This document shows, piece by piece, positions 9,660 to 64,000 of a stretch of DNA of 64,000 nucleotides. Every line of letters begins with the position of its first letter. Position 1 is the first letter of the stretch. Both the position numbers and the translations under genes were made by a program. The stretch comes from an uncultured Pirellulaceae bacterium. Lineage in GTDB: Bacteria; Planctomycetota; Planctomycetia; Pirellulales; Pirellulaceae. The notes below the pieces were generated by a model. It ran no database searches and was not told the DNA's origin. It was given only the letters and a program-made list of their open reading frames with translations. The stretch lies in the NCBI GenBank assembly GCA_964460665.1, contig CAYWSL010000001.1, positions 24,032 to 88,031 on the forward strand, written 5' to 3'.

Positions 9660-9660
9660 C

Positions 9661-15676: not shown

Positions 15677-15982
15677 CAGAAGATCCCAACCTAGTGACGA
15701 GTGAGAAGAGACACGAAACGAGTGTGAATTAAGCGTTCGCTGTACGTTTCGCCGCCTCTAGAGTACAGCAAATCTTGGTCCAAAGCCAAAGATGTTGTGA
15801 ACGACAAGGAATTCCGGTGTGGATGTAGCACTTTGCAACATCGACCTGCAGCAATCTGCCACGAAAGCAAAACCAGCCACGCTGTGAAGCGTGGCTGAAT
15901 TGAGAACGATTTCAACTAAGAACCGGACGGTTTGCGCCGCTACGGCACAGCCCTTCGGTCCCTTTAAGGACGTCAGACGGTA

Positions 15983-18900
15983 CTAGAACAAATCAGACAG
16001 CACAGCATCCACTGCAGCTATCTCATCCTGCTCATCTGTCTCTTCGTCGTCACCAGCGATCAAGTCAATGACTGAGAAGTCAGCTTGCTGTGCTACCGAA
16101 CTGGTCGTGATGACTTGGTCCGTTGAATCGCTGATCGACATCGCCGGCTCGAACTGATCGCCATTGCGATTCAGATTCGTGCCAAGCTCGATTGTGTCGG
16201 AACCAATCGGCTGGATTGGTGCGTCAACCTGTTCACCAAAGATGTCACTACGGTCGGCAATGAAATTGATTACCAAGATCGCATCGACAGCGGTAATCGC
16301 CTGAGAACCATCGACGTCCCAGAACAATGGTCCAAAATCGTCGTCCGGAATCGGGATAAATAGTCCTTCGTCAGCAATCATATTGATCACCAAAATCGCG
16401 TCCAACGGCGTAACAAGGCCGCTGGCATCCACGTCAAAGTTATCGACTTGGTTCTGGCGTCCGCCAACAACGAAGTTCAACGTAACCGTTCCTGGTAAAC
16501 TTCGCCGACCCGACGAGTCCTCTACCGAGTACGTGAACGAATCCTGACCGGTGAAGGGAGCCGTTGGCACATACCGCAGCTGGCCATTGGGCAAGATCGT
16601 GACCGTTCCGTTAGTTGGCTGAGTTTCAATCACCAATGTCGAAGCCAAGAAGTCACCTTCATCGTTGGCCAAAACATCAACGTCAAGCTGTCCAGCGACC
16701 GAGACACCACTTGCGACATCCGGATTCGCCGTTGGTAAATCTCCAACATCAACCGTTACGGTTGCTGGCTCACTCTGCTGTCCAAGATCGTCACCGACGG
16801 TGTAGCTGAACTCATCTGGCCCCGTGAAGCCAACGTCCGAGACGTATGTCACTGTGCCACTATTGTTCACAATCAGCGAACCGTTCTCGGGTTGCAAAGT
16901 GATGATGATCGAAGCAGGGTCAATCGAACCGTCGACGTCAAAGTCGTTGGCTAGGACATCAATGTCTAGCCCAACGTTTGGTGCAGCAAACACCGAATCG
17001 GCTACCGCAGTCGGCTCGTCATTGATTCCTTGTACATTCAGCAACACATTTGCTGTCGGCATCGGGTCTTCACCATCAGTATCCGTGATCATGTAAGTGA
17101 ATTGATCTACCAGTGAGGTGTTCGGTGGCAAAGCTTGAAGTATGGTTGAGGTTGTCGGATCGTAGATCAAATCACCATTTGAATCGCGTGTGATCGTCGC
17201 CCCTAAATCTGACACAAGCGGTGTCGAAATCACAACACTTAACACTTCGTTCGGATCGAAAGCACTGTCAGGATCAAAGTCGTTTGCCAACAGGTCAGCT
17301 GGATCGATCCGAAGCAATTCGTCTTCGTTAGCAAGCACTGTGTCATCGACCGCAATTGGGCTGTCGTCGACTGGATTGATCGTGATTGTCAGCGTTGCGG
17401 GCAATGATCGCCCAGCAACCGAGTCAACGGCTGTGACCAGAACGTCAACGGTTCCATTTGCATCTGGAGCTGGCGTGAAGGTTAGTTCTCCCGTTACTGA
17501 TACGTTAGGCAAAACTGCAAACAAATTTTCGCGTCCTGCAGGCACTTCGACCTCAAAGCGGTCGATCGTCTGTGTTGCTGCTTCGTCACCAGGCCCAGGT
17601 GAGATGTTCGTCGCCCAATTGCTCAGGGTGAACAATCCACTGTCCTCATCAACCAAAACAGGTGTAGGCGAAGCGGTAAATGTTGGCGGATCATTTTCGA
17701 CCCCAATAACGATTTGGAACGGATGCACGGTTTGATTCACGTCGCCGTTAGCAGCAATCGCCGGTCCGTTATCCGTCAGCACGAGTTGGAAATCGGCAAC
17801 ACCGCTCTGATCCTGTGCTGTCTCAAACGACAGGCTCAACGTCGTCCCCACTAGCGTCACGGTCGGCTGCGTAGCGAAAAGCGACGAACTATTGCTTAGC
17901 GATGTCAAGCTAGCTGTCACTGTCTGTGCTGTCGCACCTGATACTTCATCGAGTGCTCCTAGTGGACCAGGTAGAACAGAAGTCGCCCAATCTGGAATCG
18001 TGACCACCCCTTCGTCTTCAAGGACGATGACATCGGCGGCTCCGGTGAAAATTGGCGGATCATTGACACCAACAACATTGATGGTGACCGTCACATCAGT
18101 GGTTCTTGGATCGGCCGTCGGCTGTCCGTTGGACGCAACTAAAACGGTTTCGCCGTCATCTTGCAGTTGGTAGACAAACGAATCTTGGCCAACAAAATTC
18201 ACGGGTGGTTGATAGTCATATCCAGTCAAGTTGCCAGCAGCATCTTGGACCGCAGTCAACGTGCCACCACTCACGGTAGTCAGTGGAACTACCCCCAAAG
18301 CCAGTGACTGATTTCCACCAGGGTCGGCGGTGCTCGCTTCGTTTGCCGGACCAACGGTGAAGGCCCCCAAAAGATCGCCGCTAACAATGGACCCATTGGC
18401 GCTGATAAACAACGTTGTGTTTTCAGAGTTGTTAAACGCCAACGATCCGGCAGCCGGATCAATTGCCGGCGGATCATTTACAGGACGGATATCGATTGTC
18501 AGTGTTTCGATATTCGATCGGTTGATGTCGCCACGTGTAGAAACATCCGCACCAAGACCGTCATCAACTAACGAGACCTCGAATACAAATTGTCCAAACA
18601 CATCAGGAGCCGATTCGTATTGCAAAACACCCGCTGCTGAAATGGTCGGTTCTGTCGTGAAGGAAGTCGGCAGATCGGCCGCAGTGATGTTCACTGGCGA
18701 AAGTTCAAAATCGATATTTTGTCCCAGAGCAAATTCGATTTCATCGGTCGCCGTTGCTGGGCCCGCAGCAAAATTAAACGCGAATCCAGCCACGCTCTGT
18801 AGCCCTGCGTCTTCGGCTGCCTGCACATTGTTAGTGCTTAACTGGTAAATAGGGGCGTCGTTGACTGGTGTTAAATTAAGCCTTACACGGTTCGAGGCCG

Positions 18901-21900: not shown

Positions 21901-24900
21901 TAAACGGCGTGTCTTCCTGCAACGCAACACCAAACGTCGAACTGTCGATCACGTCGTTGGCTGCGGTCGGCGGATCGTTTTGCGGCTGAACCAGGATCGT
22001 TACGGTTGCATCAACGGTCTGTGGCAATGGCTGTGGAACCGCTGGGTTTCCATCCGCAAGCGTCGTCGCACCATCATCGGCAACGGTGAATACAAACTGA
22101 TCAAACGATGGGAAGCCGCCGGCGTCAGGGTTATCTCGGTTGTAATCTTCTGCGGGCTGATACGTGACACTCTCAACACCACCATTAAGCACAGTGATCG
22201 AGACCGTTCCTGATTGGACGAAACCAGTTCCGTCAGCCACGTGTGTCGGCGCCGTGTAGGTGCCGTCAATCGGCGTTGTTGGATCAAGTAGTTGCGACGC
22301 ATCCACTAGTGGCGTCAAAACACCTGTCGAATCAAAGACAGAGACCTGCGATACCTTCAATGCCTGTTCTGATTCGTTGAATGGGCTGGGCAGTGACGCC
22401 ACGTCGACATGCGGAGTCGCACCAGTCAGTAACTGAGCACTTGTGAGCGTAATTGCCGTTAGCGTATTGGTGTCACTTGGTTCCGTAGTCACCACCGACT
22501 GGCTTAACGCGGTCGGCGGATCATTTTCTGCTTCGATTGTCAGGGTGACCGTTGCCGCCCGGCTACTGCGAACCGGCAAGGCAACCAGCACGCCACCGAC
22601 TTCCACGTCCTGGGTTCCGGTGATTCGATAAGTGAAGGTGTCGGTTCCAAAAAAGTCCGTTGCCGGGTCATAGGAAAACGATCCGTCAGGATTGAATACC
22701 AACGTTCCGTTAGATACATCGCTTTCCAGGACATATTCAACACCAGCAGCGCCCGAAAGCACGTCGTTGGCTCCGACCGCGTTAGCCGCTGTCAGCGTAA
22801 ACGGATTGTCTTCAAACAGGCCGTCTGCGCGTCCAAACTGATCGTCGTCTGGTTCTGGCAATGCTGCGCGTGCGATGAACACGTTGTAGTCTTCGACTTC
22901 ACCACCGACCACCAAGCCGATTGGTGATGGATTGCCCGCATCGCTTAAGCGGAACCTTGCAAAAGTTGTTCCGGTACCGTTAACACTGTTGGACAAGAAA
23001 CTGATGTCGCTAGGAGTCGAAATCTGCAGTCGGTTCTCACCGTCTAATACCGGCTGGCCGACCACCACACGCTCGTTAGCGTCCAGGAAGTCTCCGTCGT
23101 TATTGAAGTCAATCCATAGATCCAAAATTCCGCCGCCAATCGTGCTAACGACCAATTCGGCGCCATCTGGTGACAAGGGATTCAGATAGCTAAGCACTTC
23201 GTTCGTTGCGGGATCAGTAAAGACACCATCGATCGTTGTTGATCCAATCGTCACCTGACCAATCGATGCACCGTCTTCATCGTCTGCACCTCGCAGTTCA
23301 AATTGCGTTGCACCTGACTGAGTTACAGTCGCAAGCAAATTTTGGCTTGGCAAAGCGTTTGCCACTGCGTCTGCCAACGAAGTCGTGATGTCGGCCAAGG
23401 TATCGCTTGGTGCGAATTCAACAGGAATACGGCCAACTGTCGCTGTGCCGCCCTGCGGAACCAATTCGAAGACAGCCAAGCGGCCTGACGCAGTGATTTG
23501 CAAATTGTCGTTCAGGCTCGGTAGAGCGGTAAGATCGACCGTCGTGACTCCGCCAACTGTGGTAATGGCGAATGGTCCGCTACTGGCTTCGCCCACATTG
23601 CCTTGGGCCGTGACTACCGAAGGCACATCATCAGATCCAACGCCTGCCGAGTCCGTTTCGCCATCGACGAACCGCCCCAATCGCGGGCTGCCGAAATCAA
23701 TGATCGCGTGCCGCGCACCATTGTCGCCAAACGCCGTTCCGTATGAATCGGGAGCATCGCCCAAATCAAGCTCAACGCCAGGCATGACGATCGTGAATCT
23801 TGTTTGTCCATCAGCGCGGTTTGGCTGCAGCAAATTACCGGCCAAATCAGAAACACCCTCAACCACTACTCCGTTAGCAAGCGTGGCCGGCTGGTTTTGC
23901 AGGATGATTTCGTAGACAGCATCGTTTCGCCATGTACCACTTGGCGGGCTGAAGCGAAGCGTGCGATTGGACGCGTTGTAGCCAATCACCACATCAAGCC
24001 CGGGGAACAACTGCCGTCCATTTTCTAGAATCGTTAGCTGATTCGGGGTGATCGTCGATGAATCGGGGCCGATGCCGGTGCCATCGCTGATCAGAATTTC
24101 GAAAAAGCTGAAGATACCGTCGGTCAACTGCAAGAACGTATCCTCGCGATCAATGTCAGCGTTCAACGCATCGTTGTCCGTTGGCACGATGATAATGGCT
24201 TCTGGTCCAGTGGTATCCGACCGATCCAAGGCACCAATATCGATATTGACGTTACCACCTTGCCCAGCTGCAGTCGAACCATCACGGCGAATTTGCCCAG
24301 CCAAGTCGACTTCTGTGACAACAATCGGACTCTCTGGAATTCCAACGGAGTCCTTCACGGCAACCAAGTTGGGTCGATCTGGCTGACTTCCAATGCCAAT
24401 ATCAATCAGGGCGCTTCCAGCTGCCGGATAGAAATTAGGACTTCCTGCAAATGGGTCGAATATTCCAATATTTGGATTCACAAACAAGTCACCAACTGGG
24501 TCAACGATCGCCTCGGTGCCCATTCCGATTCCCGTTGTGTTCGAGTCATCGTTGTTGTCAAAAACGGTTCCGCGAATCACGGTCGGGCCTTCATTCACGG
24601 CACTGATACCTACGTCGTTGTTTGCCACAACATTGTTGATCAGCGTAGGTGCTGCTCGGTTGGCAATCGCAATCCCGGTGCCGGTTGAACCGAAGACCGT
24701 ATTGTTGACGATCCTGGTAAACACATCCGGCCCACCTTGGGCAGGATTGCCAGACAACGAAATTCCAGTGCCATTACTGATCAACAAGTTGTTCTGCACG
24801 ACGGCCCCATGCAGGGTGCCTGCCCCAGACTGCAAGGTTGGTAAGCTCTGAGGAACACCTGGCTTGGGTCGATCACCCTCGTTAGGAGCTTTGTTCCCTG

Positions 24901-35350: not shown

Positions 35351-35431
35351 GGAAGCAACACGCAGTTCAAAAAGGCAGTGAATGAAGTCAGAGGATGAAA
35401 TGCAAACTCTGAGAACAAAAATCAAAAATGG

Positions 35432-35460
35432 AAAAACTCAAATACCGATATCTTACCGGT
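35432..35460 (-). terminator. Weak hairpin plus U-rich tract ~95 nt upstream of the giant gene A start
   Basis: Minus strand accggta-aga-tatcggt followed by atttgagttttt. Confidence 0.3.
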
Positions 35461-35500
35461 TTCCCTCTGAGGCAACCTGCTTCAGAAGCGGAACACAACG

Positions 35501-35518
35501 GGGCTAGCGAACCAGCCC
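35501..35518 (-). terminator. GC-rich hairpin just after the giant gene B stop
   Basis: Minus strand gggctgg-TTCG-ctagccc (7 bp, UUCG loop) 16 nt after the stop, followed by cgttgtgtt (weak U-tract). Confidence 0.45.
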
Positions 35519-35534
35519 TGTCGCGATCCAAAAA

Positions 35535-56500: not shown

Positions 56501-58124
56501 AAACCGAATTGGGTTCATCTGGTGACGAACCTCCAGCGCCGACGCCTTCAGGTAGATGGAATAGATTTCCGATTCCAAGCAAACTACCGATTCCACGTAC
56601 CGCTTCTACGAACCAGCTAGGACGCGCATCAGGCGACAGCCCGTATCCATCAAACCAGTTTTCAGCAGCATCGAGAACCAGGACTCCTTGAGTCGGGTCG
56701 GCGTCATTGCTGCGATAGATACTTAGCGGTGTATCGGTTCCGGCACCGGTATCGGCAGAGATAACGATGGCCCGAAGGTCACCGGTGACAATCTGAAGAC
56801 CTTCGTTCTCGGTTTCAACGAACGAAACGCCCAGACGTTCCGAGTACAGGTCCAGGACTTCACGCGCACGCTGTTTCTGCGCTTCGGTAATCGCGTTTTC
56901 GGCAAGATTCTGCTGAGGGTCCTCGCCGTACAGACTGGCGAAGTTGTATGGGAAGACATTGATACCAGTTACCGTATCAAAACGTCCGACGATCTCCGCG
57001 TCACGCCGCTGGTCTCGGGAGCCGACGGCATCAGCCGCACCTGGCCAATCCGAAAGGAACGGTTCAGTTGCTTGGATCAGTCCATCAGTGACCAGAATAC
57101 TTTGCGTACCCGCACCAAACGTCACTCCAAGTGGCAGTGCGGCATCGAATGTGTCGTCAGAACCACCGCCACTGGGCAGCACCTGCGGCGCCGCCGGAAG
57201 TGCTTCGCCGCTACCAACCCGCAGTCGGAAGGTCCCGCTGTGTTCATTGGCTACTGCAGGAGCAAGTTCGGACAGATCATTCGCGAATGTCAAAACCGCT
57301 CGATTCAATAGCGGATCGTACGTCACATCTGTCGGAATGAACGGCGCCGGGTCGTCGGTCGATTCAATCGTATCGCCGGTGTAAATCAGCTTGTAAAAGT
57401 CAGGCGTCACAACCGGTAACGTACTGCCGGCGGCAGACGAGATTGGCCCTGCGTTCGGATTTGATAGCGGGTCTTCGTTAAAGTAAACCCAGACTTGGTC
57501 ACGTCGTTGAATTCGGTTTCCGTTGACAAGTTCAACGGGTTGCGGAACCACCCCCACAACACGTGGTCCCACTTCGATATCAAACCGAACTTCCTGAATA
57601 GGACGCAATTCATCCAGCGGATTGGGTGGACAAAGCAAGTCGCCATTCACATCGCGCAGTCCGACAATTCCCATGGTGGTATCGTCGAACCCGGCGAACT
57701 CGATGATGAACTGGTCATCAGGCAGGGTTTCAGCGAAACGCGCCACAATGATGTTCGAATTGCCATCCTGCTCGAATCCAATGAAGCCAGGCGTGACTTG
57801 GATTTCGTTGCCTTCATTGAACGAACCATCGCCACCAGAACGCCGGAACTGAATTCCAGCCAACGTGGATTCGTCAATCAACTCGCCTCCAAACCGAAGA
57901 GTTAATTCGGTGGGTGCGACTGGTAAAAGGTTATTACCTTCTAAGTCGAATTGTTCGCCCGAGTTCGCGGAGATCGAAATCAATCGCGGACCTTCATTGA
58001 TACCTAGACCCGCAGCGAGCAATTCGCGGCGTTCTAAAGTTTCGTGAGTTAATCGCCGATCAGACTTTTTCTTCGCAGCAGACTTGCGATTGAACTTGCG
58101 GCGTACTGGCTTTTTCAGGGTCAT
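35535..58124 (-). CDS. Giant secreted multidomain protein B (7,529 aa), paralog of A: planctomycete leader, degenerate M10 domain, PPC, beta-helix, VWA, ~17 nested repeat modules, GEVED, ~11 cadherin/Ig-like repeats, dockerin-like C-terminus
   Basis: One open frame of 22.6 kb. Motifs RRLTHETLERRELLAA, DIVLVVDESAS (VWA MIDAS), GDAPASF...WVDFDRNG...GGEVEDF, PxNDxP repeats, and DVNGNGNVSPLDALLIIN..DTQGDQDIDPVDAILVIN. Collinear with gene A throughout. Confidence 0.93.
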   Translation of the reverse strand: MTLKKPVRRKFNRKSAAKKKSDRRLTHETLERRELLAAGLGINEGPRLISISANSGEQFDLEGNNLLPVAPTELTLRFGGELIDESTLAGIQFRRSGGDGSFNEGNEIQVTPGFIGFEQDGNSNIIVARFAETLPDDQFIIEFAGFDDTTMGIVGLRDVNGDLLCPPNPLDELRPIQEVRFDIEVGPRVVGVVPQPVELVNGNRIQRRDQVWVYFNEDPLSNPNAGPISSAAGSTLPVVTPDFYKLIYTGDTIESTDDPAPFIPTDVTYDPLLNRAVLTFANDLSELAPAVANEHSGTFRLRVGSGEALPAAPQVLPSGGGSDDTFDAALPLGVTFGAGTQSILVTDGLIQATEPFLSDWPGAADAVGSRDQRRDAEIVGRFDTVTGINVFPYNFASLYGEDPQQNLAENAITEAQKQRAREVLDLYSERLGVSFVETENEGLQIVTGDLRAIVISADTGAGTDTPLSIYRSNDADPTQGVLVLDAAENWFDGYGLSPDARPSWFVEAVRGIGSLLGIGNLFHLPEGVGAGGSSPDEPNSVSFSEQFYPDLPVEPSFLSQSDVTLGQALHRPESNDVDFYSFTAASAGRLSVETFAERLDGSSLLDTHINVYQRDADGEYILIARNDDFYSDDSFVGIDVELGSYIIGISSTGNENYSGEVSGSGLGGVSEGRYELRVTFTSTAGGTITDTTGTRLDGDADGREGGDFNFWFRVARDLSTAGTDEPRTIFVDKLGDDVNNDGALGTPLQTISAAFAIARPGDLVRLLPNGGADGLITTTDDNLAYEIGIGGSANVPLSDGAEFEVPRGVTVMIDAGAILKLQQAKISVGSESVDEDRSLASLQVLGSPVISEANGSVVGSGEVIFTSYSNEAVAVDTNPLATTPAPGQWAGIEFRNDFDNAEGRPVWETEGIFLDYVSHANISYGGGSIAVNEPIVTPIQVAESRPTIIYNTITDSADAALSADPNSFLETNFHSPVFQRVALFTSDYDRVGPEIAGNTLINNSINGLFVRVNTPAAGELEPLTVSGRFDDTDVVHSISQVLVLQGQPGGPILSEERPDVLSVQLTADALDAAGDPAGTLAAGTYDYRLTFVDLLGNESLASLPTLPVSVVSGSSITLNNLAPAPDEFSGRRLYRFDAASGNYVFVQQLDRGSSSFEDTGETRGGILRSEQSPNAAPVLLSDSFAPGTLFPGNALNYRFTFVDSIGGESLASDPSSSFLTPANGSILLSNLPAVPESYVGIRIYRLDVATGDYVLVVEQDTGTTQYLDNGDQIGGLLERDGNGGNTLIPRLNARLSIDPGTIVKLQNARIEAGFGADFYAEGVDGQEVVFTSRLDDTFGAGGTFDTNNDGVSDNAAPADWGGLIFRQDSIGSLDFATVRFGGGSTPTQGAFTDFNAIEILQADVRIANSTIQDNGAGFVSTSTRDGIGFNDEAAIFVRGSQPIIVDNIIQGNEGAAISINPNALDFHDLLDVGRSTGSLSQITTDQDNQGPLISGNRLDLNSINALHVRSEVLTTESVWDDTDIVHYVDGQVISATHHLNSGLRLKSDPEQSLVVKHDTGAELIGTGVPLDIEDRVGGTIQVLGTPGNPVVLTSINDCTVGAGFTPDGRPMNDTLLGGACSVEVVVPPPTVPHVDIVLVVDESASLGPTQAFTAQFVQDLEAGLLAAGVGNVSGNRYGAVGFGGGGADNLGRSILVGGGLFGTADEYATATSQFVTTGAIEDGFAGIDFALDNYSFRADAARFIILATDEDRDDEDRSLTLTSTIANLQANDIALQGILGINIQDNNGLRALAIDSTDVFIEDPAGPGGFTTQPGGVVIGGSGVADYLPLVQATGGIAGDLSQIGTSPATAAVFGQALIASIVDQAGGGGNTNQGTQGDWQGVTIGAFANDRNVAHIIETEDAIPAANARNAIADDSQRIGDLAADEFAGDETERLGFNIRGTLADENDVDVYSFTATGGTTVFFDIDDTSFGLDTVLELVDVNDNVLASSDNSFAESSDPSTLISNLPDNVVRPLFLTGVGNAEGPNPLDAGFRVILPGSNNSENLYFVRVRSANGNTSGQYTLGIRLREADEVSGSTVQFADIRFATNAINVTGAPLHSPLTADAQESLDFTTIVDPTPENPESGDEFVQESANNRLGFVPADVDQIGNLLTSDRGSLLVTGEIGNINVTDADIRLEDVDVYQVDLFTQQIEPDVFDSENRFVPVTFDIDYADGLGRVNTSISVYNSFGQLILHSRDSNIADDVGRPLEGVDSTNLAGGSAAVLDAFIGPVELPEGSYFVVVGNAATVPTALDQFFDPESANTDVRVVPINSVRRIAEDTLDEHDIANFDPENPTVVFSDQFNYTAERPIIEPIFDQDSIVPYTLDDIRLFVSLDSGYTGTNQSGLISVNPFTGEVERVIGQSGQPTDDIALRRDGELFSFSLGPETGAETSQNVGNFLNISPVDAAASNEGDDTIVFQSSNQQFTDLVADNAAQLDVHAVTFPLSDGQSAAAANSPGFIVGSRDNNGRGFEIPTELTRNIFYQTIASDGEITSRGNTNANAHRQFTGNVPYFPNQGPASADLEWGIIDTGAIFNTGGDEGTITGIGIEADGSSVFDTFFAVTDNGGVHSFIPGVTVPAPNTSPAFGYDSVIPTTFHGVVPLDPIHAASTFGFATSPVFTGMAMGPRVIENGLYRQTIFASTEDGWLYALEINEAGEVEPANVFYNGRAAIPITFNDGFAGLPLFTSPTGIAFSHLEESLFQQTGSRGLEPGHGLDVPEDRSRTGTFGGQSLYFGVTANDPDDNTIGSPDDANGDIAPGGSHGSIISRAFSLEGYSPADQPTLYFTYFLEVEENDDSNFVRNQNDSFRVFGSGDDGEWQLLATNNNFRELVADDEFDYFNDTNIPVQELFDDTQEWRQSRVDLGPLAGSENVRIRFDFSTAGSMRTQFGSVDFVAVPGDEVIDREQLFFTDNNLNQIVLETIVGRDVVFPGGVDLDNNDQFTVTGPDGPFTIRFVTGPPSQLGDVQINAFMSANDVAEEVLRIIPGSLNPANNGDGSLSFLAATDIGLIGDIPVGQSNPVQIDVSETPPSFLNEPPFFDPGSPGATQLVIPDGSDLTAGESFTLFGETSVIQLTYVNFPTGAPGEVVFANADTADDIARRVVSLLPSDFGAIFDGNGVINFLNPVTAFTTASTSQIVIDNARTVNESRIRITPASGDDLIDGETLTLTSPAGTTVVTFTDTANPSGPGAVSFQAGDTVATIATRLLAALPDELLSIRQGNDILVVASGAITDVAGTELVLAQVPSQTISFPSGANLIPGESIRLNSASGFTDLQFFPSAVPGPPGTISYLTTDSAAVIRARVAAALAFPTVNSAGGLIVYGATAVAASEPTSQISSAFTNGQSITPPAGADLIDGESIDVTVGGVVTTIQFVDTAGPVGPNQVAFQATDSAGQVATRLLAATETAWNPTLSGNTVFFVADTVVHQLGASDIQVVPGVFTENVVNLDIPDATELRNGEQIDISNFGFFPTDTITFILRGSTVPDAGTIQVFYDPTDLAEDLYAQIVDGLSVNHQVYIDPTGAGINIFDEFNSTFATLGVSPVATLVGVEDVVTYAIPVTIPNGSEITSGETLTVTTQDDLTGANAQTFTLVDVNLQTGAPSELTFDPLAPADVVAADIFAQLPIELQPYLVGTREIYLLNASSVQTTPGSHVISYQSSLNSSPILVTSTMTTVEVAERLQAGFADGFGRFATIDGVTTATSDNYKVYGGDRIKLFNVTPQDAGAFGVSGFEIFSGGGFTTTPVPGDEFGEDQASFYGGGGVRRNGALDNEVQGVFIDDIIVGFAERGELVLNAPFNDTSFVFNPETLPDTHPQAVQPERQNEILVGGYSLEIRTSDEYGVEEDYNPINLQLSEQLGLGRSFDTNDRLVDGAVTLIVPPPSSLIDGDTFTLDDGDRLLTFEFDSTTDGTVTPGNVRVAFNNANSDSAFVARAVRDAINSAQVQSVLNITAATSDSLESGVPTGNRVELFGENIAVNHSGGRFLKVDLVDEENFQGRESSRQIPVVDHTTQTVTSAINRDELPRSAVTQFVDGGADTLVAVGRIGDNVATGLEVGNLQDGAVIVASDPSLDWDSIRVYLEAGDNIDIDVDTLGFTKAGEVLDLPVITVLEQGRFGATTISGQFVDLPQTEILAQTSLLAPTSAPGESQAGAFLQFQAPTSAYYDIVVSSTALFLPDQLITDFGEYQLTVRPNAATSAAVPDRDVLMVDYQFGISDTNRVSPQGQIIISSNFVSDSAQVGIRATNADRDVRLVGIPGTNAIAVPGDLPTPGSAALLRNQNTDSLIPGVVISNNVVVASGDAAILLQGDTNANGSVATSSLFGRIVNNTVVGQGVGDGIRVAGSASPTILNNVVAFFDEGIVTTADQFGDVIIGNNAYQNNTTNATIPISTSAIVVPQEVELFEDPARRIYIPATGSNVIDSSFASLPDRADFLQTVKEPVGISPSPIIAPGFDVYGQARVDDPLVATPGGVGINVFIDRGAIDRADTERPVAVLVGPQDAVGLAVAGGDQDVDQSFVRLAEGIVEFFDVQLTDTAGTGLDPLTINSSNVILTENGRQLTPDEDYIFGYSSNSRTIRLTPLTGLWRSDSVYEITINNRPRIEVTLPAGDQILDGDQVTTIEEDGTATVFEFDSGFSLQVPQSTLLTFSGTNADLTDEETLTITSPSGITRTIEVDLDNFITAGSSNIIFDARDAGTVVQVRDAFLNLLNSADPLDPTMTTAEVLGLTPRSIGASQLQLGTVTGHTITSTIASADVTGVDQGLADGDTFTYTSGTQSVTFQLTEDALVSDPSFVPIAISNTDTPDEIAQAIAAEIALDVHGLGLGTAQAVGNGTVLVGGVVGDVLTLDQSGMTLLGSPGVTTDAVVVPFIPTTQFTSASTAAALQAAIRNSAAGVTVTSPGAGTLLISDTQLIQATFGGSVPSSIGTLLPAVSDLAGNPVRETRITDETRFTIIMPDVVFDYGDAPASFGTLDADNGARHTVSSDRVPRLGNFLDTETDGASTPNGDDTPLVLNATETGLVFTVVAPNASTRSINIANIQPLGGETLTIQAGDVTATFELTLSTSNPAQGNVPVNFVAGDTAGNIARNLSQAIRAEIDGIDESIIMTVDTVDGAIILEAIDDEDGISTGIFVNNAGIPFHVFTTPGTPPNNVSGDDVIGFLNPLDPAGTSTIVNVVGAGLLDAWVDFDRNGFFEADEQVISNVAVVNGENIVNFFAPSNATQGDTWMRVRISESGNLTPTGVSVGGEVEDFEISVLPIALPVPVNDQYTAIEDTTLVVDALSPQRNLLSNDQDLATQILPVRYFVGDQPQNGTLTVLDELTGEFTYEPNEDFFGIDTFTYRLSTQQNSGPGSPTTSTFATVTIDVQPINDIPGAQNQSFIGVEDTTLAISAAELLAGATGHASPAITTPPQDESDQILHVESISSGGVIVSSANATATTDEGATISALFDAQGFITTVLYTPAVDFNSDNLPLADGSLRTDEFEFTLTDDGELFLDDGSVISGVARQVTATATVTVTPTNDPPDLTGETINQNDTDYLAFYASINAVAPVPTEDTALVIPTAFLLANDFSGPSTAADEVTFVRSNDGAVSIVDVSLVDPATGQISLVAGDVNFIPADDIFGDVEFVYQVVDQGVDEAADGTRTANPLISEVTATIFLEPINDNPFAFDRSLSIDEAIEPAGPAVLSFTSLDLINGGGLNANSPITITGTSVTIPDGIDLIDGETFSIVGSDGVSRVVELTTSGSASVGTDVFVSYTLTDTADVIAGNLAAVLRGAGLGGSVLNDTISFIEVDSIATDTYNSGVTATATSVSVLDGQSLTGGEVLTVTDTDGRTVTFEFSATGLSMSGADVLVPFNRTDTAENIAGALQTALANNGFGSAILAGAGGDWIARFVNIQAVAINDPTSQIARDGNVITLPEGGSVVNGETITIDDGAGTIRVVEFNTTGTPSAGTDFVVVVTATDTADAVAASLQATLRSQGFGVIATGADVAFVAVDDAIATEPLTSVVVSNDSILLPAGASLIDGERITITFDGGLTAIAEFTTDGVFSADADFTVLFNPLDSSTTIASRLEAELRSNSYAATAAGGLVSFVNTVSVAVEENPNTAGNFPETLAAPFNEVEQSLRVVAFETSLGTIDVAVDGNGTHTLTTSAGGLLTFTFAGGAFTTGSYEPPIDYNQQAPFQPNDLFTYTIEDNGQTTIPGSNATVTLPVERSLLPATVTITVNETNDPPTFDTPIEINILEDVVGFTVPGVITNVLPSMASALDEVANQTVSFQIVPSLSTVPAGLMTQDPIIDLNGGLTFFPATDQIGTAVYVIRGTDADPNNPNFLSASTDATVTVQVRPVNDAPRFDPLATSSDSLSPDEAYSVVVAADGSAAPITYTLREDNTQAQGLLERYFIPLQRDTSVIGYSQIGLLDVFTVGPDNELDSSQEGGSQQLTISSPGNVSTTTLGGTIERETVNGTLVGFFYTPPQDFNNEIGTFDSFTYEVIDNSTVGGETFVLSTNVLTEDNLRTSNTVFFDLTPVNDRPEFTLINNFIEVAEDSGLSTVQGYAVNIAAGPQATAFDEVDATIGSETGQEVNFSLALVNIPPSRVSQFFEESPAITPDGTLTFEPAENVFGEFVFEVVLNDDGIGNATRGDLISSDPQTITISVLPVNDSPVLSPNAGDLSFTLLENSTIDIQIVGDTVTAGLLDVFLPGPDNESDDITPGGNQTVSLATPITTSTTSGGSLTQIFDETGLTNLRYTPRPDFTGEDSFIYTVTDDGITVDVGSNIAQLDPRFASNTVNLTVLPVNDEPIFSGAGNVVTSEDFGPVVVNDWATSVLAGPATAGDEIANQNLSFVFTQTAGSPALFADSPTAVIDSLTNTASLSFQAAADANGVAVFEVFLLDDGPDAGNGDDNVSITQTFTIRVNAVNDPPSFTPGGIIQVAEDSGPFSQSEPWAGNVSAGPNDESSQNVRFEVTVPDDAVDLFRSPPEISDTGFLRFTPAANANGTVDLDVQAFDSDGGESDSVTLRIIIDEVNDTPRAVEDDILTNEDVVFTITSATLLGNDIDPDLITNPNEFLTVVPQNGERSIEGALVSFDAATGSITYDPTNSVSLQSLAPGESIVDSFTYSVVDAAGATSTPVLVNVTVAGVNDAPVLNIDQPTLNPNGPTVIRPLDNDTDIDGFIDPSSISITLQPAFGTIAVADNGIITYTPFGSFSTEDQFRYTVADNLGLRGSEGIVSIAANVAPIAVGDIAETFIGEPIDVNVAANDMDPDGQLDLAGIIVLEQPQRGQAIPQNNGTIRYVPNLDFVGTDTFVYSIPDQEGRFSEPATVSVRVSNSRLQNPDEFLDVNGNGNVSPLDALLIINFIADNGLFTPVAETDRGPNFYDTQGDQDIDPVDAILVINFLADRAAEGGAFGEQVSISQPVVDPVVVDFVDIDSNDAAFELTEQPITTVTQPSANLVDASVEDSLDNDNNVIDLIAFDDDDEDEEADRVEALDAAFGDLI
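39712..40906 (-). repeat. Four tandem copies of the same module inside a cadherin-like repeat of gene B
   Basis: LIDGETFSI..DTADVIAGNL; LTGGEVLTV..DTAENIAGAL; VVNGETITI..DTADAVAASL; LIDGERITI..DSSTTIASRL. Confidence 0.75.
46945..49330 (-). repeat. Protein-level tandem/nested repeats (~75-85 aa module, 7 inner copies plus 1 split outer copy) inside gene B
   Basis: Recurring pattern IP-x-G-x-x-L-x-x-GE-T/S-hydrophobic...TF-x-F...G-x-V-x-F-x-x-x-DTA-x-x-IA-x-x-L, e.g. LIDGETLTLT..VSFQAGDTVATIATRLL and LIDGESIDVT..VAFQATDSAGQVATRLL. The copies are diverged at the DNA level. Confidence 0.75.
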
Positions 58125-58175
58125 ATGACCTGACCTAAAACTAAAGGCGTAAAAATGAAATCACTGCGATTGCAG

Positions 58176-58210
58176 CACAAAACCGAATCGAACTTCAGTG
58201 TTCAATTCGG
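58176..58210 (-). terminator. Intrinsic terminator-like hairpin between giant genes C and B
   Basis: Minus strand ccgaattgaac-actgaa-gttcgattcgg (11 bp including one G-U) followed by ttttgtg. It lies ~125 nt after the C stop and ~55 nt before the B start. Confidence 0.5.
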
Positions 58211-58334
58211 TGGCGAAATAAAAAGGTAGGGCCCCAAAAATGGGTGACTTACGAATCATCCAGTGAAACTTCTCGTTCTTGTTTTTTGCTAAATCATAGT
58301 TGTTACTACTCGGCTCTGCCCAACATAGGTGGGG

Positions 58335-61300
58335 TCATCTTAACTCGTATTCGGATTCGCTAAGCAAATCAACTAGTGCATCGTCGATGTTTCGGCTGAC
58401 ATCGTCAGCTGAATCGTCATTGCCCAAGGCAATCAAGTCCGAGACTTGCGCCACAGGACTATTGGAAATCTCTAATCCAGTTGTCAAAAGGTTGTCCCGA
58501 GCGTCGTTTTCCAGAACAGGTGCATCGACCCTTTCTCGATTCGAGTTCGGTAGGTTGGCCGTGGAGATTGCGGCGAACGCGGTCGTCACCGCGAAACTGG
58601 TGGAAACCAACTCCCCTTGGGCAGGGGCATTTACAACTAATTCACCAGCTGCTTCTTCTGCGCGGTCGGCCAAGAAATTGATCACCAAAATGGCGTCAAC
58701 TGCACCAATGAATCCGTTCCCGTCGACGTCCAGGAAGTCTGGCGGTGGAGTACCGATCTGACTGACCGGAGTGAATAGCCCATTTTCACTGATGAAGTTG
58801 ATCACGCGAATCGCATCGAGCGGCGAAACAATTCCGTTGCCCGTCACGTCGGCTGCTAAATCCTGTAGCGGATTTTGAAAACTGGATTGATTCAGATTCA
58901 GCGTCACTGTAACTGGCTGCCCAACACGGCCAGTCGAATCGACTGCTCGGTACGTAAACGAATCCGTGTCACCAACATTGCCACCGGTGTTGACGTATGT
59001 AAACGTTCCGTCTTCAGAAATCGACAACGTACCCAATGACGGCTGCGTCACGGTTGGCAAGTCAACTAGGATGGTGTCACCGTCGGCGTCACTATCGTTT
59101 CGCAATACTCCGTCCGCGGGATTCAACACAGGCAGTTGTGATCCAACCGGGACGTTGTAGACATCGCCAACGGTAATCGGTGCATCAGCCACTGGCGTAA
59201 TCGTCAGCGTAAATACGTCAAACGGACTTTGCGAACCATCGGTTGCTGACACCTCAAGTTCAATGGCACCTGATTGATCAGGTTCCGGAACGATCACGAT
59301 GTTGTCACCCGAGAAAGAGATGGAGGCGATCAACGGATTCTGACTGATCTGAGCTTGAGTTGGATTCACAATGTTGCCCAACCGGGTGACCGTGTAAGTC
59401 AGTTGTTCCGGATCTGGATCGGCAAATACAGTGCCCAAGTCGGCAACAATCGTCTGGTCCTCGCGTCCAACAAGTGGTTCCAGGGTTCCGATTCGTACAG
59501 GTGGATCCGGTGTATTGCGAACCGTCACAGGGACTCGCTGAGTAACCGATCCACCCTGGCCATCATCAGCAGTGATCACCAAAGCTGTTTCGCCTGGCCT
59601 AAACGAAGGCAGTTCGATTGTCAGTTCTGAATCAACCAAAACAGCCGATACGATCGTGGAGTCTTCGGAAATGGCGGTGAACGTCAACGGATCCGCTTCA
59701 GGGTCACTGAACCAGGTGTTCAAGTCGAACGTGAACACCTGTGGAATCGCTTTGCTTTCGTCCAGCTCCAAGGACGTGACGCCATTGACGCCATTGACTC
59801 CTTCGAAGACAGGATTGTCGTTGGTTCCCGCTACATCCAAGTTGACGGTACCAGTAGCGGTTGCACCAAACTCGTCTTCAATGATGTAAGTGAAGCTGTC
59901 GGAACCACTGAAGAACGGGCTAGGCGTGTACACCAAAGCGCCGTTTGTGAAATCAACGGATCCACCCTGGAAGCTGAATCTTGGGAATTGAGCCGGAATC
60001 GTTTGTAAGCGAACCTGAGCACCAGCAGTGACTTCGTTTTGTGGACCAACCGAATCGTTGTCAAAAATGCCAGGCATGCCTGGGATCCCATTCAACGGAA
60101 TCTGCAATGTCATTCGTTCGGTCACCGAGAAATTGTCCGTGCCCGCGATCGGAGGATCATTCACCGGTGTGATGGCAATCGAAACGGTGCCCTGGCGCGT
60201 CGCTTGTTCAACGACTTGCCCTGGCCCCGGTTGATCGGCCACCACGTAGGTGAACGTATCTGCCTGAGCACCGTTGAAATTCAACGGTGGTGTGTATTGG
60301 ATGGCGGTCCCGCCATTGATGATTTCAACTATACCACCCTGCGTCGATGCGGCGTTGGTGATCACACCAAGCGTATCGGGGAAGCTAGCGGCCGACTGAA
60401 TGATCAAGCCTTGGCCGGCCTCGTTGGCGGGCCCCGCAACAAAGAACGGGTCAATCAACTCCGATACGTCAAAAATCTGTACCTCGTCTTCATTGATCGC
60501 TCGGTTGACCTCCACATTAATCGACGTGGCGATCGGAGGATCATTGACAGGCAAGACTTCAATCGTGCCCGTGATCGCTCGGGTGTTGGTGATTTGCGCC
60601 GTCGGATCGATCGGATTGATGTCGGTTACGCGAGCGGTAAACGTTGTCGTTCCAACGAAGTCAGGTTCTGGGATGAACGTGAATGTTCCATCGCTGGCTA
60701 ATGAAAACGCACCAGCAATCGTGCCGTTTGGAGTTGTCAGTGTTCTATCCCCAACGTCCGCTGGGAAAATGGCAACCGTCTGACCATCAGGATCGACTAC
60801 ACCGGACAGCAGGCCATCGTCGTTTTGGCTAGCGGTCAATGTTCCTGCACCATCAAGAACTTGTAACGCCACGTCTTCAGGAACTGTAAACGTACGGTCG
60901 GCTTGTGCATCGGTCAGCGCTGGCGGGTTGCCAGGCAACAATCGCAGTGCGTAGTCTTCGACCTCGCCACTAAGTGCTAGGCCTGTCGGAGTTAGGCCGC
61001 CTTCACGCGACACGCGGAAACGTGCGAACGTCGTCACTGGTGCAACCGGTGCAGCAATGACATCTGGAATGCTGACCTCAAAGACTCGCGTCACACCGGA
61101 ACCTGTGTCGCTGAAAATCGCGCCAGGCGTGTTGGCGTTGATAATCTGTTCGCCCGAATCGTCCCAATCGCCGTCGCCATTGAAATCAACCCACGCTTCC
61201 AAGATTCCAGATCCTGTTACCGTAACCGAAATGGGCGTCACGACGCCCCTGTTCAGCACGCCTTCAGGGTTGATTTCGCTTGTCAGTACGACACCGTCTT

Positions 61301-64000
61301 CATCATCGACACTGAGGGAAATCGTGTCGCCACTGAGTACTACGTCTGCTGGACGCAGTGGGCTTTCGTTGATCGCGTTAAAGATCGCAGTGGCAATTGA
61401 TTCATTGGTGAACGGCACGGTAGGCGAGATCGCGTAGTGGTCTTCGTCAAAAATACCGAGTCCATCGGTATCGAATTCCAGAATCGCTTCATCAACAAAC
61501 GTGTTAATCACGATCAGGTCGCCGTCACGAAGCACCGCATCTTCACCACTAATGTCGACTGTGATTTCAGCCAAGCCATTCGCTGTCACAACTGAAATCA
61601 GTGGGCTGTCAGAAAAGACGTCTACGACGTTGTCGTCGCCATCGGCGTTCGGTGACGGACGTCCATCCAAATCGACATCCACTGTGTTTCCTAGAAACAG
61701 CGTGTTGTCGACTAGGTGACGCGGACCATCATTCGCCAATGTTGTTGGGTATCGCCCTGATTCATCAAAGAACGGGTCAGGAGCGTCACCAAAGTCGAGC
61801 GCTGTTCCAGGCAGCAGAATGGTGAACTCGGTCGTGTCGCCACGATTGGCTTCTAGCGGATTGCCCGAAAGGTCTTGAATCGCTGGCAGGAAGAATGTCG
61901 TGATTCCTTCGCCCAAGAAAATCGTTCCGTTCTCGACAAACAACGACGCACCACCACGGTCGGTCGCAGAAAGCGTTGTCGAAGGCTGTTCACCAGGGAT
62001 GTTGACGCTGTTGATGGCACTCAGGATCGCCTGCCTTACCTGGACGTCGCTGAACGCAGGAGTCACTCGTACCGGAATCGCACCACCAGGAACCCCGATG
62101 ACATTCAATGTTGGAGCTGAGGTGACATCCACAGTGGTTCCAGGAATGTCATTCAAGAGAACTTGTCCTGTCGGCACACCCGAGGCATCCAGCTCTGCAA
62201 TCGCAAAGACTCGCAGGTTGGCCGAGTTGTTGTTGATTGCGGCTGCCAAACTATTGGCGACGTCACCCACGCTGCTGCCCGCTTGGAAAGTGACTGCAAC
62301 ATTACCGATGGTCACACCGCCACCGTTGGATGCTTCCTCGAACTCGAATCGTACTTCGTTATCGCCCTGTCGGATCACTAACACTTCTTGGTCGGAAACG
62401 ATTCCTCGCTGAGTTGTGATTTGAGGCGCCCCCGGAATCCCGAGTGCCAAGTCACCGCCCACATTAACTTGACTGTCGTCGATTCTACCAAGTGAAACTT
62501 GGCCGTTTCCAATCGGTGCGGCAGTCACTCCAATGCCTGCGGCATTGATTGCTGCGGAAAGATTGGTGGCGACTACATCGCTGGTGTCGAACGAGTTGTA
62601 CGCAACAACATTAGAGACGGGCGTCAAGTTACCGTTGGCATCTGGGCTACCATCAAAAGTCTGGGCCTGACCATTCAAGACAAACTCAAACAAGACATCA
62701 TTGCCCAATTCATCTTCGATCAAAACGACTTCGCCGGACTGGATCGCTCCACCACCAACGGCAGGCAGGTTAAGCAAAAGCGGTCCAAACACTTGAATGG
62801 TCGAAGCGCCCGTCACTGACGGTGATCCAACGACTTCTAGTGTGCTGCCAAGCACACTCAAACCCAAGCCTTGCTGTCCGCCAATGGACAGCAAACCACC
62901 ACCAACAGGCAGCACATCATTCGAGCTCAAACCGCTGATGAATTCCGTCTGAATCGCGTTACCTAATATCGCAGCAAATTCTTCGCTGGTAGTTGATCGT
63001 GTAACGTTGACTGGAATGCTGTTTTGGTCAACGCCGTCATCACCAGTAGGCTCATCCGTGCGATTGACCTCAAATGTCACAACGGGCGAACCGTCATCTG
63101 GCAGCAGGTTAATCAGATCGCCATCGACTGGCGTGCGACTCACACCCACCACACGCAATAGGCCATTGGCCACACTGACCGAGCCATTTTCTGGCAGGTT
63201 CAAGTAGACATCGGTGCCAATCAACTGAGCATTCAGGTCAAGTGGTGAAGACAGAACGGCAAGCTGGATCGCTTGTGCGACTTCCAGAGCCGATAGGGGC
63301 GTCTGGCTTGCAATGTCGACTGGGATGTTTCCACCGGCCGTGTTGGTCGTGCCATCATTGAACTCGAAAATGATGTTAACACTTCCGTTGTTGATGACAA
63401 ACGTCTCGCCTGATTGAACACCGTTGACCGGGTCGGTTCCGGCGTTTGGCACTTGCAATGCCAACGTGCGTGCAGACTGTAGCAAGCCGCTGCCTGCCGT
63501 TTGTACCGTAGCACCAGCTTCTGCACCCAAGACAATACGTTCGTCAATCACACGAATATCTAGGTCAAGCAAACCTGCATCCACCTGGCTTTGAATTGCG
63601 ACCTGAGTATTCAGGGCGATGTCATTCAAGAAAGCTGGGATCAAGTCCGAATCAAGCGGTGTGCCGCTGGTGGGAAGCGTGACGGGGACTGTTCCCGGCA
63701 GCGTCGCAGAATCCGAGTTGTATTCAAATGTGATCGGTGGATTGTTTCCGTCGTCGATCACAAACACATCGCCATCACGAACACCGCCCGCATTGGTGCC
63801 CTGCGGTGGCACCGATAGGGTCAACGGTTCGGGCAGCAACAATTGGAAGCCGGTCTCGAATTCGAACACGACGGTACCGCCGGTCGAATCTGTGATCGAA
63901 AACTGACTACCGTCCGAGATCGCCGATGGATCCGATGCAATCAAGACCGTGCGGTCGCGATTGTTCAATGCGATTCGATAGGCATTATCGTCACGCCAAA
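58335..64000 (-). CDS. Giant secreted multidomain protein C, C-terminal >=1,887 aa only (5' part beyond the window), paralog of A and B
   Basis: The frame stays open to the window edge (..WRDDNAYRIALNNRDR..), matching WRNDAVYEIILQN in A and WRSDSVYEITINN in B. It contains GDAPDP...GEVEDY, ~5 PxNDxP/Ig repeats, and a dockerin-like pair (DVTGNGIVSPLDAIRVIN..DVDGNGFIGAVDAILVIN). Confidence 0.92.
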   Translation of the reverse strand, partial: WRDDNAYRIALNNRDRTVLIASDPSAISDGSQFSITDSTGGTVVFEFETGFQLLLPEPLTLSVPPQGTNAGGVRDGDVFVIDDGNNPPITFEYNSDSATLPGTVPVTLPTSGTPLDSDLIPAFLNDIALNTQVAIQSQVDAGLLDLDIRVIDERIVLGAEAGATVQTAGSGLLQSARTLALQVPNAGTDPVNGVQSGETFVINNGSVNIIFEFNDGTTNTAGGNIPVDIASQTPLSALEVAQAIQLAVLSSPLDLNAQLIGTDVYLNLPENGSVSVANGLLRVVGVSRTPVDGDLINLLPDDGSPVVTFEVNRTDEPTGDDGVDQNSIPVNVTRSTTSEEFAAILGNAIQTEFISGLSSNDVLPVGGGLLSIGGQQGLGLSVLGSTLEVVGSPSVTGASTIQVFGPLLLNLPAVGGGAIQSGEVVLIEDELGNDVLFEFVLNGQAQTFDGSPDANGNLTPVSNVVAYNSFDTSDVVATNLSAAINAAGIGVTAAPIGNGQVSLGRIDDSQVNVGGDLALGIPGAPQITTQRGIVSDQEVLVIRQGDNEVRFEFEEASNGGGVTIGNVAVTFQAGSSVGDVANSLAAAINNNSANLRVFAIAELDASGVPTGQVLLNDIPGTTVDVTSAPTLNVIGVPGGAIPVRVTPAFSDVQVRQAILSAINSVNIPGEQPSTTLSATDRGGASLFVENGTIFLGEGITTFFLPAIQDLSGNPLEANRGDTTEFTILLPGTALDFGDAPDPFFDESGRYPTTLANDGPRHLVDNTLFLGNTVDVDLDGRPSPNADGDDNVVDVFSDSPLISVVTANGLAEITVDISGEDAVLRDGDLIVINTFVDEAILEFDTDGLGIFDEDHYAISPTVPFTNESIATAIFNAINESPLRPADVVLSGDTISLSVDDEDGVVLTSEINPEGVLNRGVVTPISVTVTGSGILEAWVDFNGDGDWDDSGEQIINANTPGAIFSDTGSGVTRVFEVSIPDVIAAPVAPVTTFARFRVSREGGLTPTGLALSGEVEDYALRLLPGNPPALTDAQADRTFTVPEDVALQVLDGAGTLTASQNDDGLLSGVVDPDGQTVAIFPADVGDRTLTTPNGTIAGAFSLASDGTFTFIPEPDFVGTTTFTARVTDINPIDPTAQITNTRAITGTIEVLPVNDPPIATSINVEVNRAINEDEVQIFDVSELIDPFFVAGPANEAGQGLIIQSAASFPDTLGVITNAASTQGGIVEIINGGTAIQYTPPLNFNGAQADTFTYVVADQPGPGQVVEQATRQGTVSIAITPVNDPPIAGTDNFSVTERMTLQIPLNGIPGMPGIFDNDSVGPQNEVTAGAQVRLQTIPAQFPRFSFQGGSVDFTNGALVYTPSPFFSGSDSFTYIIEDEFGATATGTVNLDVAGTNDNPVFEGVNGVNGVTSLELDESKAIPQVFTFDLNTWFSDPEADPLTFTAISEDSTIVSAVLVDSELTIELPSFRPGETALVITADDGQGGSVTQRVPVTVRNTPDPPVRIGTLEPLVGREDQTIVADLGTVFADPDPEQLTYTVTRLGNIVNPTQAQISQNPLIASISFSGDNIVIVPEPDQSGAIELEVSATDGSQSPFDVFTLTITPVADAPITVGDVYNVPVGSQLPVLNPADGVLRNDSDADGDTILVDLPTVTQPSLGTLSISEDGTFTYVNTGGNVGDTDSFTYRAVDSTGRVGQPVTVTLNLNQSSFQNPLQDLAADVTGNGIVSPLDAIRVINFISENGLFTPVSQIGTPPPDFLDVDGNGFIGAVDAILVINFLADRAEEAAGELVVNAPAQGELVSTSFAVTTAFAAISTANLPNSNRERVDAPVLENDARDNLLTTGLEISNSPVAQVSDLIALGNDDSADDVSRNIDDALVDLLSESEYELR

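Follow-up and report, generated by a model that had tools for sequence, protein, structure and literature searches.

What are the three enormous genes that lie side by side in the DNA of an uncultured Pirellulaceae bacterium, and is their arrangement peculiar to this genome? The stretch analyzed here, called the window, comprises 64,000 nucleotides of contig CAYWSL010000001.1 (assembly GCA_964460665.1, positions 24,032 to 88,031). It stems from a marine metagenome and has its nearest relatives in the Pirellulaceae. Three very long open reading frames (ORFs), A, B and C, are all located on the minus strand and transcribed in the order C, B, A. Judged by their sequences, they encode three giant paralogs of old origin that are collinear, but have different whole modules at certain fixed positions, as well as different protease motif states and stalk lengths. 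We consider it reasonably probable that the products are exported, fibrillar-adhesin-like proteins, whose N-terminal head has enzymatic and binding domains and is followed by a probably calcium-stiffened stalk and a C-terminal attachment region made of a dockerin-like domain and an acidic tail.

Three collinear giant paralogs

In a global alignment, A and B are collinear from the leader to the last residue, with merged blocks that are 26-54% identical and long blocks that are 40-52% identical, and BLASTP links the two proteins by a collinear chain of high-scoring segments with E-values down to 0. The C-terminal halves of A and B align with C in the same order (25-39% identity, BLASTP). A homolog search with C returned only a fragment of C itself, whereas a scan of a genome collection returned an ortholog in a Pirellulaceae metagenome-assembled genome (MAG; L007). 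With at least 5404 residues and 49-51% identity to C, this ortholog shows that the collinearity with A and B includes the head. A sequence-only reading of the locus had proposed that the three proteins align domain by domain, and under rigorous alignment this collinearity is kept, for A and B from end to end.

At the DNA level, A and B share only two short matches of at most 79% identity, and no similarity was found between A and C. This near absence of DNA similarity between the paralogs speaks for an old duplication. As Tandem Repeats Finder (TRF) found no tandem DNA repeats in the window and the paralogs share almost no DNA, the repeats are not assembly artefacts. A, B and the ortholog of C each have counterparts in other genera that are 60-72% identical; among the paralogs, identity in this region is 34-39%. 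The three genes thus arose before these genera and have been retained since, in agreement with the old, maintained duplication proposed from sequence alone.

Domains were sought in A, B and C with Pfam and NCBIfam profiles, and folds with AlphaFold and Foldseek. The common plan begins with a basic N-terminus that carries the HETLERRELLAA motif, followed by a metzincin-like domain with PPC, a fibronectin type III (FN3)-like unit and a first beta-helix. Tandem PPC/collagen-binding-like domains, a long region without Pfam match and a second, NosD-like beta-helix come next, and GEVED leads into a stalk of ~2000 residues (Cadherin_4, Cadherin_5, Big_9, tandem-95). The proteins end with Dockerin_1 and an acidic tail of ~100 residues, at the end of which VIDLIA and D.A..DL motifs are conserved. 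In A, the parts are, in order, the leader, two matrixin+PPC modules, beta-helix 1, an empty slot (residue boundary 1866/1867, nucleotides 29752/29753), the PPC tandem, a propeller-like region, jelly-roll-like domains, beta-helix 2, GEVED, stalk, dockerin and acidic tail. The part of C inside the window consists of modules, GEVED, a stalk with 4 detected repeats, the dockerin and the acidic tail; to judge from its ortholog, C has a dead zinc site and an empty slot.

Dockerin_1, GEVED, Big_9, Cadherin_4, Cadherin_5 and tandem-95 all score above their curated cut-offs. The stalk repeats reach Pfam E-values down to 1e-53 and 139-220 bits with NCBIfam tand_rpt_95 (cut-off 90), and Dockerin_1 scores 24.3-36.7 bits over whole pieces of A, B and C (cut-off 22.9), with both EF-hand-like segments conserved. 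Local hidden Markov model counts give 12, 10 and 4 stalk repeats for A, B and C, where ~13, ~11 and ~5 had been estimated, so that the unequal lengths stand with somewhat different numbers. The N-terminal motif is found at residues 22-46 of A and B, and a classical hydrophobic signal core is missing. This planctomycete motif is said to go back to Studholme 2004. In composition, the proteins are strongly acidic (~14% Asp+Glu versus ~4% Lys+Arg; in A, 885 versus 237 residues) and nearly devoid of Cys, Lys, Met and Trp, with 0 Cys in mature A and C and 3 in B.

Against this common background, the whole-domain differences listed in the sequence-only reading proved real. A has an extra N-terminal matrixin+PPC module (residues 45-437) and, in the stalk, an aromatic insert (residues 4543-4684) with 15.5% F/W/Y compared to 7.3% overall, whereas B has a VWA domain, described below. 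A ~100-residue module with the signature DGExF...FEF...DTA..IA forms arrays of 7, 4 and 2-3 copies in B and occurs as single copies in A. The FN3-like unit is present before the first beta-helix. As to the protease motif, A has two intact HExxHxxGxxH motifs (residues 253 and 887; Pfam M10 E = 3e-14, 53.6 bits, cut-off 24), whereas none was found in B or in the ortholog of C, in which the site is also degenerate.

Pfam and NCBIfam returned nothing for the central regions and most inserts, and a word-indexed homolog search with the central 1200 residues of A retrieved 4 proteins only. A search of PDB sequences with the first 5000 residues of B gave no match, and with A it gave matches only to the two metzincin domains. 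The beta-helix profile has a sole PDB match, the FN3-like unit of the phage virion protein 8jov_A, and a viral fold library yielded VWA and FN3-like matches only. The FN3-like unit of B (residues ~1182-1275, window ~54300-54580) and its equivalent in A carry the motif Y.Y..TFVD..G.ES..S. This unit matches the virion-associated protein 8jov_A with E = 1.7e-5 and also resembles small domains of many predicted phage tail proteins. For residues 2290-3489 of A, the AlphaFold model tentatively suggests a seven-bladed propeller-like region, followed by jelly-roll-like domains and small beta-alpha-beta modules.

Variable junctions in a large planctomycete family

Such a set turned out not to be peculiar to this locus. 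A search with residues 1090-2289 of A against 1.84 billion cluster representatives returned 2927 representatives at E <= 1e-3 and 921 at E <= 1e-30; among the best 150, most are 4000-7900 residues long, with alignments that cover the 1200 residues wholly or for the most part. The named matches come from Pirellulaceae, Rhodopirellula, Rubripirellula, Novipirellula, Stieleria, Aureliella, Blastopirellula and Gimesia, plus one Hydrogenedentota MAG, and the homologs are mainly confined to Planctomycetota. Comparison of the locus across relatives, as had been suggested, shows recurring tandem arrays. The order C then B is found in two other assemblies, namely in the L007 MAG, where the C ortholog is followed by a B-like gene, and in a frameshifted long-read contig with small genes before the C-like and B-like genes. 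Another genome has at least three family members in a row.

The closest case is Stieleria varia, which has the same trio as adjacent giant genes Pla52n_17480, 17490 and 17500 of 6271, 7630 and 6858 residues, the last annotated as Matrixin (PMC7717043, Table 2); the lengths here are ~5200-5400, 7529 and 6455. The Pla52n_17500 protein of 6858 residues is the family match P0143, with two HExxH sites (residues 228 and 882) near the positions of those in A (253 and 887). The locus is thus ordinary for its group, and its genes belong to a planctomycete family that is very large and already known, though not yet characterised.

Planctomycetota are known for their giant genes (PMC5177795; PMC12673574), and a review calls their products "apparently" surface or calcium-binding proteins (PMC12673574). 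Big_9, Cadherin_4, Cadherin_5 and Dockerin_1 have been reported as characteristic of huge Planctomycetota proteins, with Dockerin_1 enriched (PMC11573180). The proteins studied here share with these giants the phylum, the size class (A 6455, B 7529, C ortholog at least 5404 residues), a candidate N-terminal export motif (in A and B, with scores below the Pfam cut-off), the Big_9/Cadherin_4/Cadherin_5/tandem-95 repeats and Dockerin_1. They differ from the named relatives in coming from another genus, an uncultured marine member of the Pirellulaceae, with the nearest named relatives ~50-65% identical. For the published giants, only InterPro domains are listed; a collinear scaffold, dead and live protease states and variable junctions are not described there. 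No functional study of the family was found in the literature searched.

One of the variable sites is the VWA site of B. The insert comprises 252 residues (1616-1867), with the sequence DESAS at insert position 26, and matches the Pfam VWA profile with E = 3.5e-4 and a score of 21.3, under the gathering cut-off of 23.8. An AlphaFold model of B residues 1160-2359 (mean predicted local distance difference test score, pLDDT, 83) contains a beta-sandwich, a beta-helix, an alpha/beta domain and then beta-sandwich domains. With Foldseek, the alpha/beta domain (model residues 474-707) matches integrin I-domains and the LapA vWFA domain with probability 1.0, and the domains that follow it match the ColG collagen-binding tandem. 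The predicted Rossmann-like fold and the DxSxS metal ion-dependent adhesion site (MIDAS) motif identify the insert as a VWA domain. In the model it follows the last turn of beta-helix 1 and precedes the first PPC, joined to each by a linker of low confidence. The variable sites are junctions between domains and not loops within one fold, and an insertion into a loop of a single fold was rejected. Of the swappable slots on one scaffold that had been proposed, the whole modules at fixed positions stand, while the loops become junctions.

The same site was surveyed in 143 family representatives, anchored on its flanks. In 109 of them there is no insert (-6 to 16 residues), whereas the other 34 have 247-432 residues, and the insert lengths are bimodal among partial proteins too. 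The occupants include VWA domains with DESxS motifs, a complete subtilase with prodomain (Pfam E = 1e-55), an HExxH-motif domain as well as a degenerate version of it, a common type of ~280 residues without family assignment, and an insert with a weak DUF3344 match. One further occupant type may be choice-of-anchor-L-like, to judge from its sequence motifs. At the slot equivalent to window position 29752/29753, other domains are present in P0220, P0214, P0246 and others. On a tree built from the flanks, presence and absence of the insert require 12 changes, compared to ~30 with shuffled states, which speaks for several gains or losses, clustered by lineage.

A second junction, at residues 3821/3833 of A, varies in another manner, with stepped lengths of ~0, 100, 205, 320, 430 and 650 residues; these represent copy-number variation of the ~100-residue module. 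One may go further and regard the fixed junctions of the giant scaffold as cassette sites that exchange unrelated catalytic and adhesive domains (VWA, subtilase, metzincin-like HExxH and at least three types without assignment, with the ~100-residue module changing stepwise), and the conserved trio as one functional set of surface fibres. The trio would then comprise one protein with intact protease motifs, one with VWA and a dead site, and the remaining third protein, serving for example attachment or polymer capture. We regard this extended reading as possible, but rather doubtful.

The locus does not represent a new kind of system. Giant genes make up a sizeable share of planctomycete genomes, and their products are still uncharacterised. 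What is gained are handles on a family with a conserved head of ~4000 residues, a precise domain-hosting junction, stepwise module copy number, and live and dead states of the metzincin motif. Orthologs of the trio are kept across genera, among them the cultured Stieleria varia Pla52n, and the A type is found in Novipirellula aureliae Q31b; these cultured strains are accessible to knock-outs, proteomics and imaging. What deserves to be pursued, in strains of this kind, is the analysis of the junctions across the family.

Proposed function and its rivals

Together, our data suggest a model in which the giant proteins would be exported by way of the planctomycete N-terminal motif of the RRxxxExLExRxLLA type and would then form long fibres. 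The N-terminal head of ~4000 residues would carry the enzymatic and binding domains, namely metzincin+PPC, two beta-helices, tandem PPC/collagen-binding-like domains, the propeller-like region and jelly-roll-like domains. GEVED would connect this head to the long cadherin-like/Big_9 stalk, which would give reach and is probably stiffened by calcium, as are related repeat families, and the dockerin-like EF-hand pair together with the conserved acidic tail would tether the protein at its C-terminus to the envelope or to a partner. The three paralogs may carry different payloads: two intact zinc motifs and an empty slot in A, a dead site and a VWA domain in B, and, going by the ortholog, a dead site and an empty slot in C. 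The cells would probably use them to attach to polymers on algal surfaces or on marine particles and to process these polymers.

The predicted export motif, PPC, VWA, GEVED, stalk repeats and dockerin agree with extracellular proteins of the fibre or adhesin type. Of the surface fibre or adhesin system envisaged in the sequence-only reading, this part fits the domain content, while a multi-subunit fibre, alternative expression and a holdfast or stalk role are not supported by anything here. The N-terminal motif has been treated as a planctomycete export signal, and proteins with related motifs were detected in Tuwongella proteomes, some of them in the SDS-soluble fraction only (PMC8567305). 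As in CshA-type adhesins (PMC10952558), the first stalk repeat comes right after GEVED, which argues for a head at the N-terminus and attachment at the C-terminus. The tails in the wider family suggest the same, since 7 of the 107 long members have, in place of the acidic tail, a hydrophobic stretch and then an Arg-rich end. The family thus seems to have a choice of two C-terminal signals for attachment or sorting, the acidic and the RRRR-type tail. The RRRR-type ends are found in P0162, P0174, P0178, P0182, P0188, P0195 and P0218, in place of the D.A..DL tail.

The likeness to CshA-type or "FA-like" fibrillar adhesins (Monzon et al., PMC8286594, PMC10952558) extends to the binding head, GEVED immediately before a repetitive stalk, a presumed C-terminal attachment end, VWA as a common adhesive domain, and diversification by domain shuffling. 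By the features that define FA-like proteins, repeated stalk domains are present and the candidate adhesive domain is the VWA domain of B, with a Pfam score below the cut-off (21.3 versus 23.8); in A, PPC and GEVED are present, but none of the adhesive domains listed. For anchoring at the cell surface, the C-terminal dockerin and acidic tail are candidates. However, the giants are far larger, and their heads of ~4000 residues contain metzincin-like domains, two beta-helices and a propeller-like region. They have neither a sortase-type nor another known anchor, their export motif is different, and CshA NR2 was not detected in them.

Several points weigh against the model. The scores for the export motif profile PF07595 (17.4-24.5 bits) stay below the cut-off of 25.5, and the proteins lack a classical signal peptide. 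Between ~1200 and 2500 residues of each head have no Pfam match, and the model of the central region of A has a mean pLDDT of only 62.6. Calcium binding by the stalk is suggested by analogy with its domain families, and neither a cohesin nor another anchoring partner was found within the window. Three small metatranscriptomes from the same study, consisting of contigs only, contained no contigs on A, which is uninformative. Furthermore, the Met of the Met-turn is absent within ~45 residues after either zinc motif of A. At the place expected from matrix metalloproteinase sequences, both domains have Leu (NNALLEP, GTVLGD). With intact zinc motifs but this Leu, catalytic activity of the A metzincins is plausible, not assured. 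The claim that the protease is active in A and dead in B thus holds for the motifs, intact in A and degenerate in B (VEAVRGIGSLLGIGN), and is uncertain for the activity.

Among the rivals, it is unlikely that the proteins are released and dock through their dockerins onto a cohesin scaffold elsewhere in the genome, to form a multi-subunit enzyme or adhesin complex in the manner of a cellulosome. Such an assembly would account for a duplicated EF-hand segment near the C-terminus that resembles type I dockerins, exceeds the Pfam cut-off in all three proteins with both segments conserved, and belongs to a domain reported as enriched in huge Planctomycetota proteins (PMC11573180). However, neither cohesin nor scaffoldin was found within the window, none of A, B and C showed a glycoside hydrolase domain, and the giants are 10-15 times longer than cellulosomal enzymes. 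The conserved acidic tail after the dockerin is absent from classical dockerins, and across the family a simple pattern finds the dockerin-like motif in just 51 of the 107 long members, while 7 have the hydrophobic Arg-rich end. The other comparison that suggests itself is with repeats-in-toxin (RTX) giant adhesins such as LapA, MpIBP and SiiE. These are also giant and acidic and have calcium-dependent Ig-like extender repeats; the VWA domain of B is structurally like the LapA vWFA domain, and the acidic C-terminal tail looks unstructured. Type I secretion by a C-terminal export signal, with N-terminal retention at the outer membrane, is nevertheless very unlikely, and was rejected. GGxGxD matches number 0, 1 and 0 in A, B and C, with no HemolysinCabind match, genes for an ABC transporter, membrane fusion protein and TolC were not found in the window, and the N-terminal head and C-terminal stalk are the reverse of the LapA type, in addition to the planctomycete motif at the N-terminus.

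The exchange of several unrelated domain types, proteases among them, at one precise junction recalls polymorphic toxins and MARTX cassettes, and could mean that the variable site carries toxic payloads directed at neighbouring cells. We rejected this reading as highly improbable, for the occupants (VWA, subtilase with prodomain, metzincin-like HExxH) are adhesive or hydrolytic and not known toxin domains, the giant genes are not followed by small immunity-like genes, the variable site lies inside the protein and not at its C-terminus, and the orthologs are stable across genera. That the genes are silent or decaying relics, or assembly artefacts, without current function is barely credible. 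In a related long-read assembly, frameshifts break up the homologs, which is what decay or artefact might look like; but the frames run uninterrupted for 6455 and 7529 codons, and intact ORFs of 19-22 kb recur in several independent assemblies. The same DNA shows 0-4 differences over 9.7 kb between these assemblies, too few for a ratio of nonsynonymous to synonymous substitution rates (dN/dS), and there are no repeats at the DNA level that could cause collapse. The 60-72% identical orthologs in other genera, together with invariant residues, argue for selection, so that an artefact or pseudogene was rejected as well. The exported, fibrillar-adhesin-like protein with head, stalk and C-terminal attachment remains the reading that we prefer.

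Locus layout and neighbouring genes

Coordinates of the features are collected in the table. The terminator-like hairpins after each giant gene, which are consensus matches only, hint at separate transcription units. No Rfam families were found in the window. The contig is also available in a version of 138.9 kb.

Features of the three giant genes and their surroundings (window positions)
Feature	Position	Strand	Remarks
Gene A	15983..35350	-	6455 aa from Met start
A planctomycete export motif LNHETLERRELLAAE	35213..35269	-	after basic stretch; PF07595 19.7 bits, cut-off 25.5
A extra matrixin-like + PPC	34091..34933	-	HEIGHSIGLGH at 34562-34594; no counterpart in B
A second metzincin-like + PPC	32270..32953	-	HEVGHALGLSH at 32660-32692; module common to B and C
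A FN3-like unit + beta-helix 1	29753..32053	-	most conserved part of family
A propeller-like region	27101..28303	-	AlphaFold model, moderate confidence
A GEVED	22880..23122	-	head-stalk boundary
A stalk, cadherin-like/Big_9/tandem-95	16478..22819	-	12 repeats detected
A-specific aromatic insert in stalk	21299-21724	-	142 aa, aa 4543-4684
A dockerin type I-like EF-hand-like pair + acidic tail	15986..16438	-	pair at 16259-16438; VIDLIA and D.A..DL conserved
Gene B	35535..58124	-	7529 aa, collinear with A
B degenerate metzincin-like domain	56535..56867	-	VEAVRGIGSLLGIGN aligned to HEVGHALGLSH of A
B VWA	52524..53279	-	MIDAS-like DESAS; between beta-helix 1 and PPC tandem
B array 1 of ~100-aa module	47022..49223	-	7 copies; 1 copy in A here
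B copies of ~100-aa module at equivalent of A 3821/3833 junction	43548..44210	-	2-3 copies; none in A
B array 2 of ~100-aa module	39714..40895	-	4 copies, within stalk
B dockerin-like domain + acidic tail	35538..36011	-	
Gene C	58335..64000	-	continues past window end, no stop inside; C-terminal 1887 aa, N-terminus outside window
C GEVED	60945-61202	-	
C dockerin	58671-58853	-	acidic tail after dockerin
Terminator-like hairpin after C	58182..58211	-	
Terminator-like hairpin after B	35501..35518	-	
Terminator-like hairpin after A	15873..15898	-	

A TTG start would extend the ORF of A to 35425, but the Met at 35350 is the likelier start, as the resulting length of 6455 residues is that of most independent gene calls in several metagenome assemblies. 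The extension (35351-35425) comprises 25 codons, LIFVLRVCISSSDFIHCLFELRVAS, contains both Cys of the ORF and is probably untranslated. On a 74-kb contig (ENA ERZ23487491 scaffold_217) whose part of the locus differs from the window by 2 bases, A is called at 6287 instead of 6455 residues, which may be a strain-level length variant of 168 residues or another choice of start.

The other genes of the window include those for DUF1598, ATE, a beta-oxidation set, patatin and an M16 peptidase. Directly downstream of A, a DUF1598 protein of 553 residues with a classical signal peptide is encoded at 14015-15676 on the minus strand; its gene adjoins A in 6 of the 6 assemblies shown, which represent the same or near-identical strains. 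Between it and the beta-oxidation genes, on the opposite strand (13221-13964, plus), lies a gene for an arginyl-/leucyl-tRNA-protein transferase (ATE_N/ATE_C). The beta-oxidation set (4227-12818, minus) comprises acyl-CoA synthetase, thiolase, a FadB-like hydratase/dehydrogenase, acyl-CoA dehydrogenase and a patatin-like lipase and is, by content, unrelated to the giant genes. An M16 (insulinase-like) peptidase of 942 residues, with one half of the active and the other of the inactive type, is encoded at 807-3635 on the minus strand, and a small ORF with a Rieske domain at 3842-4183 on the plus strand.

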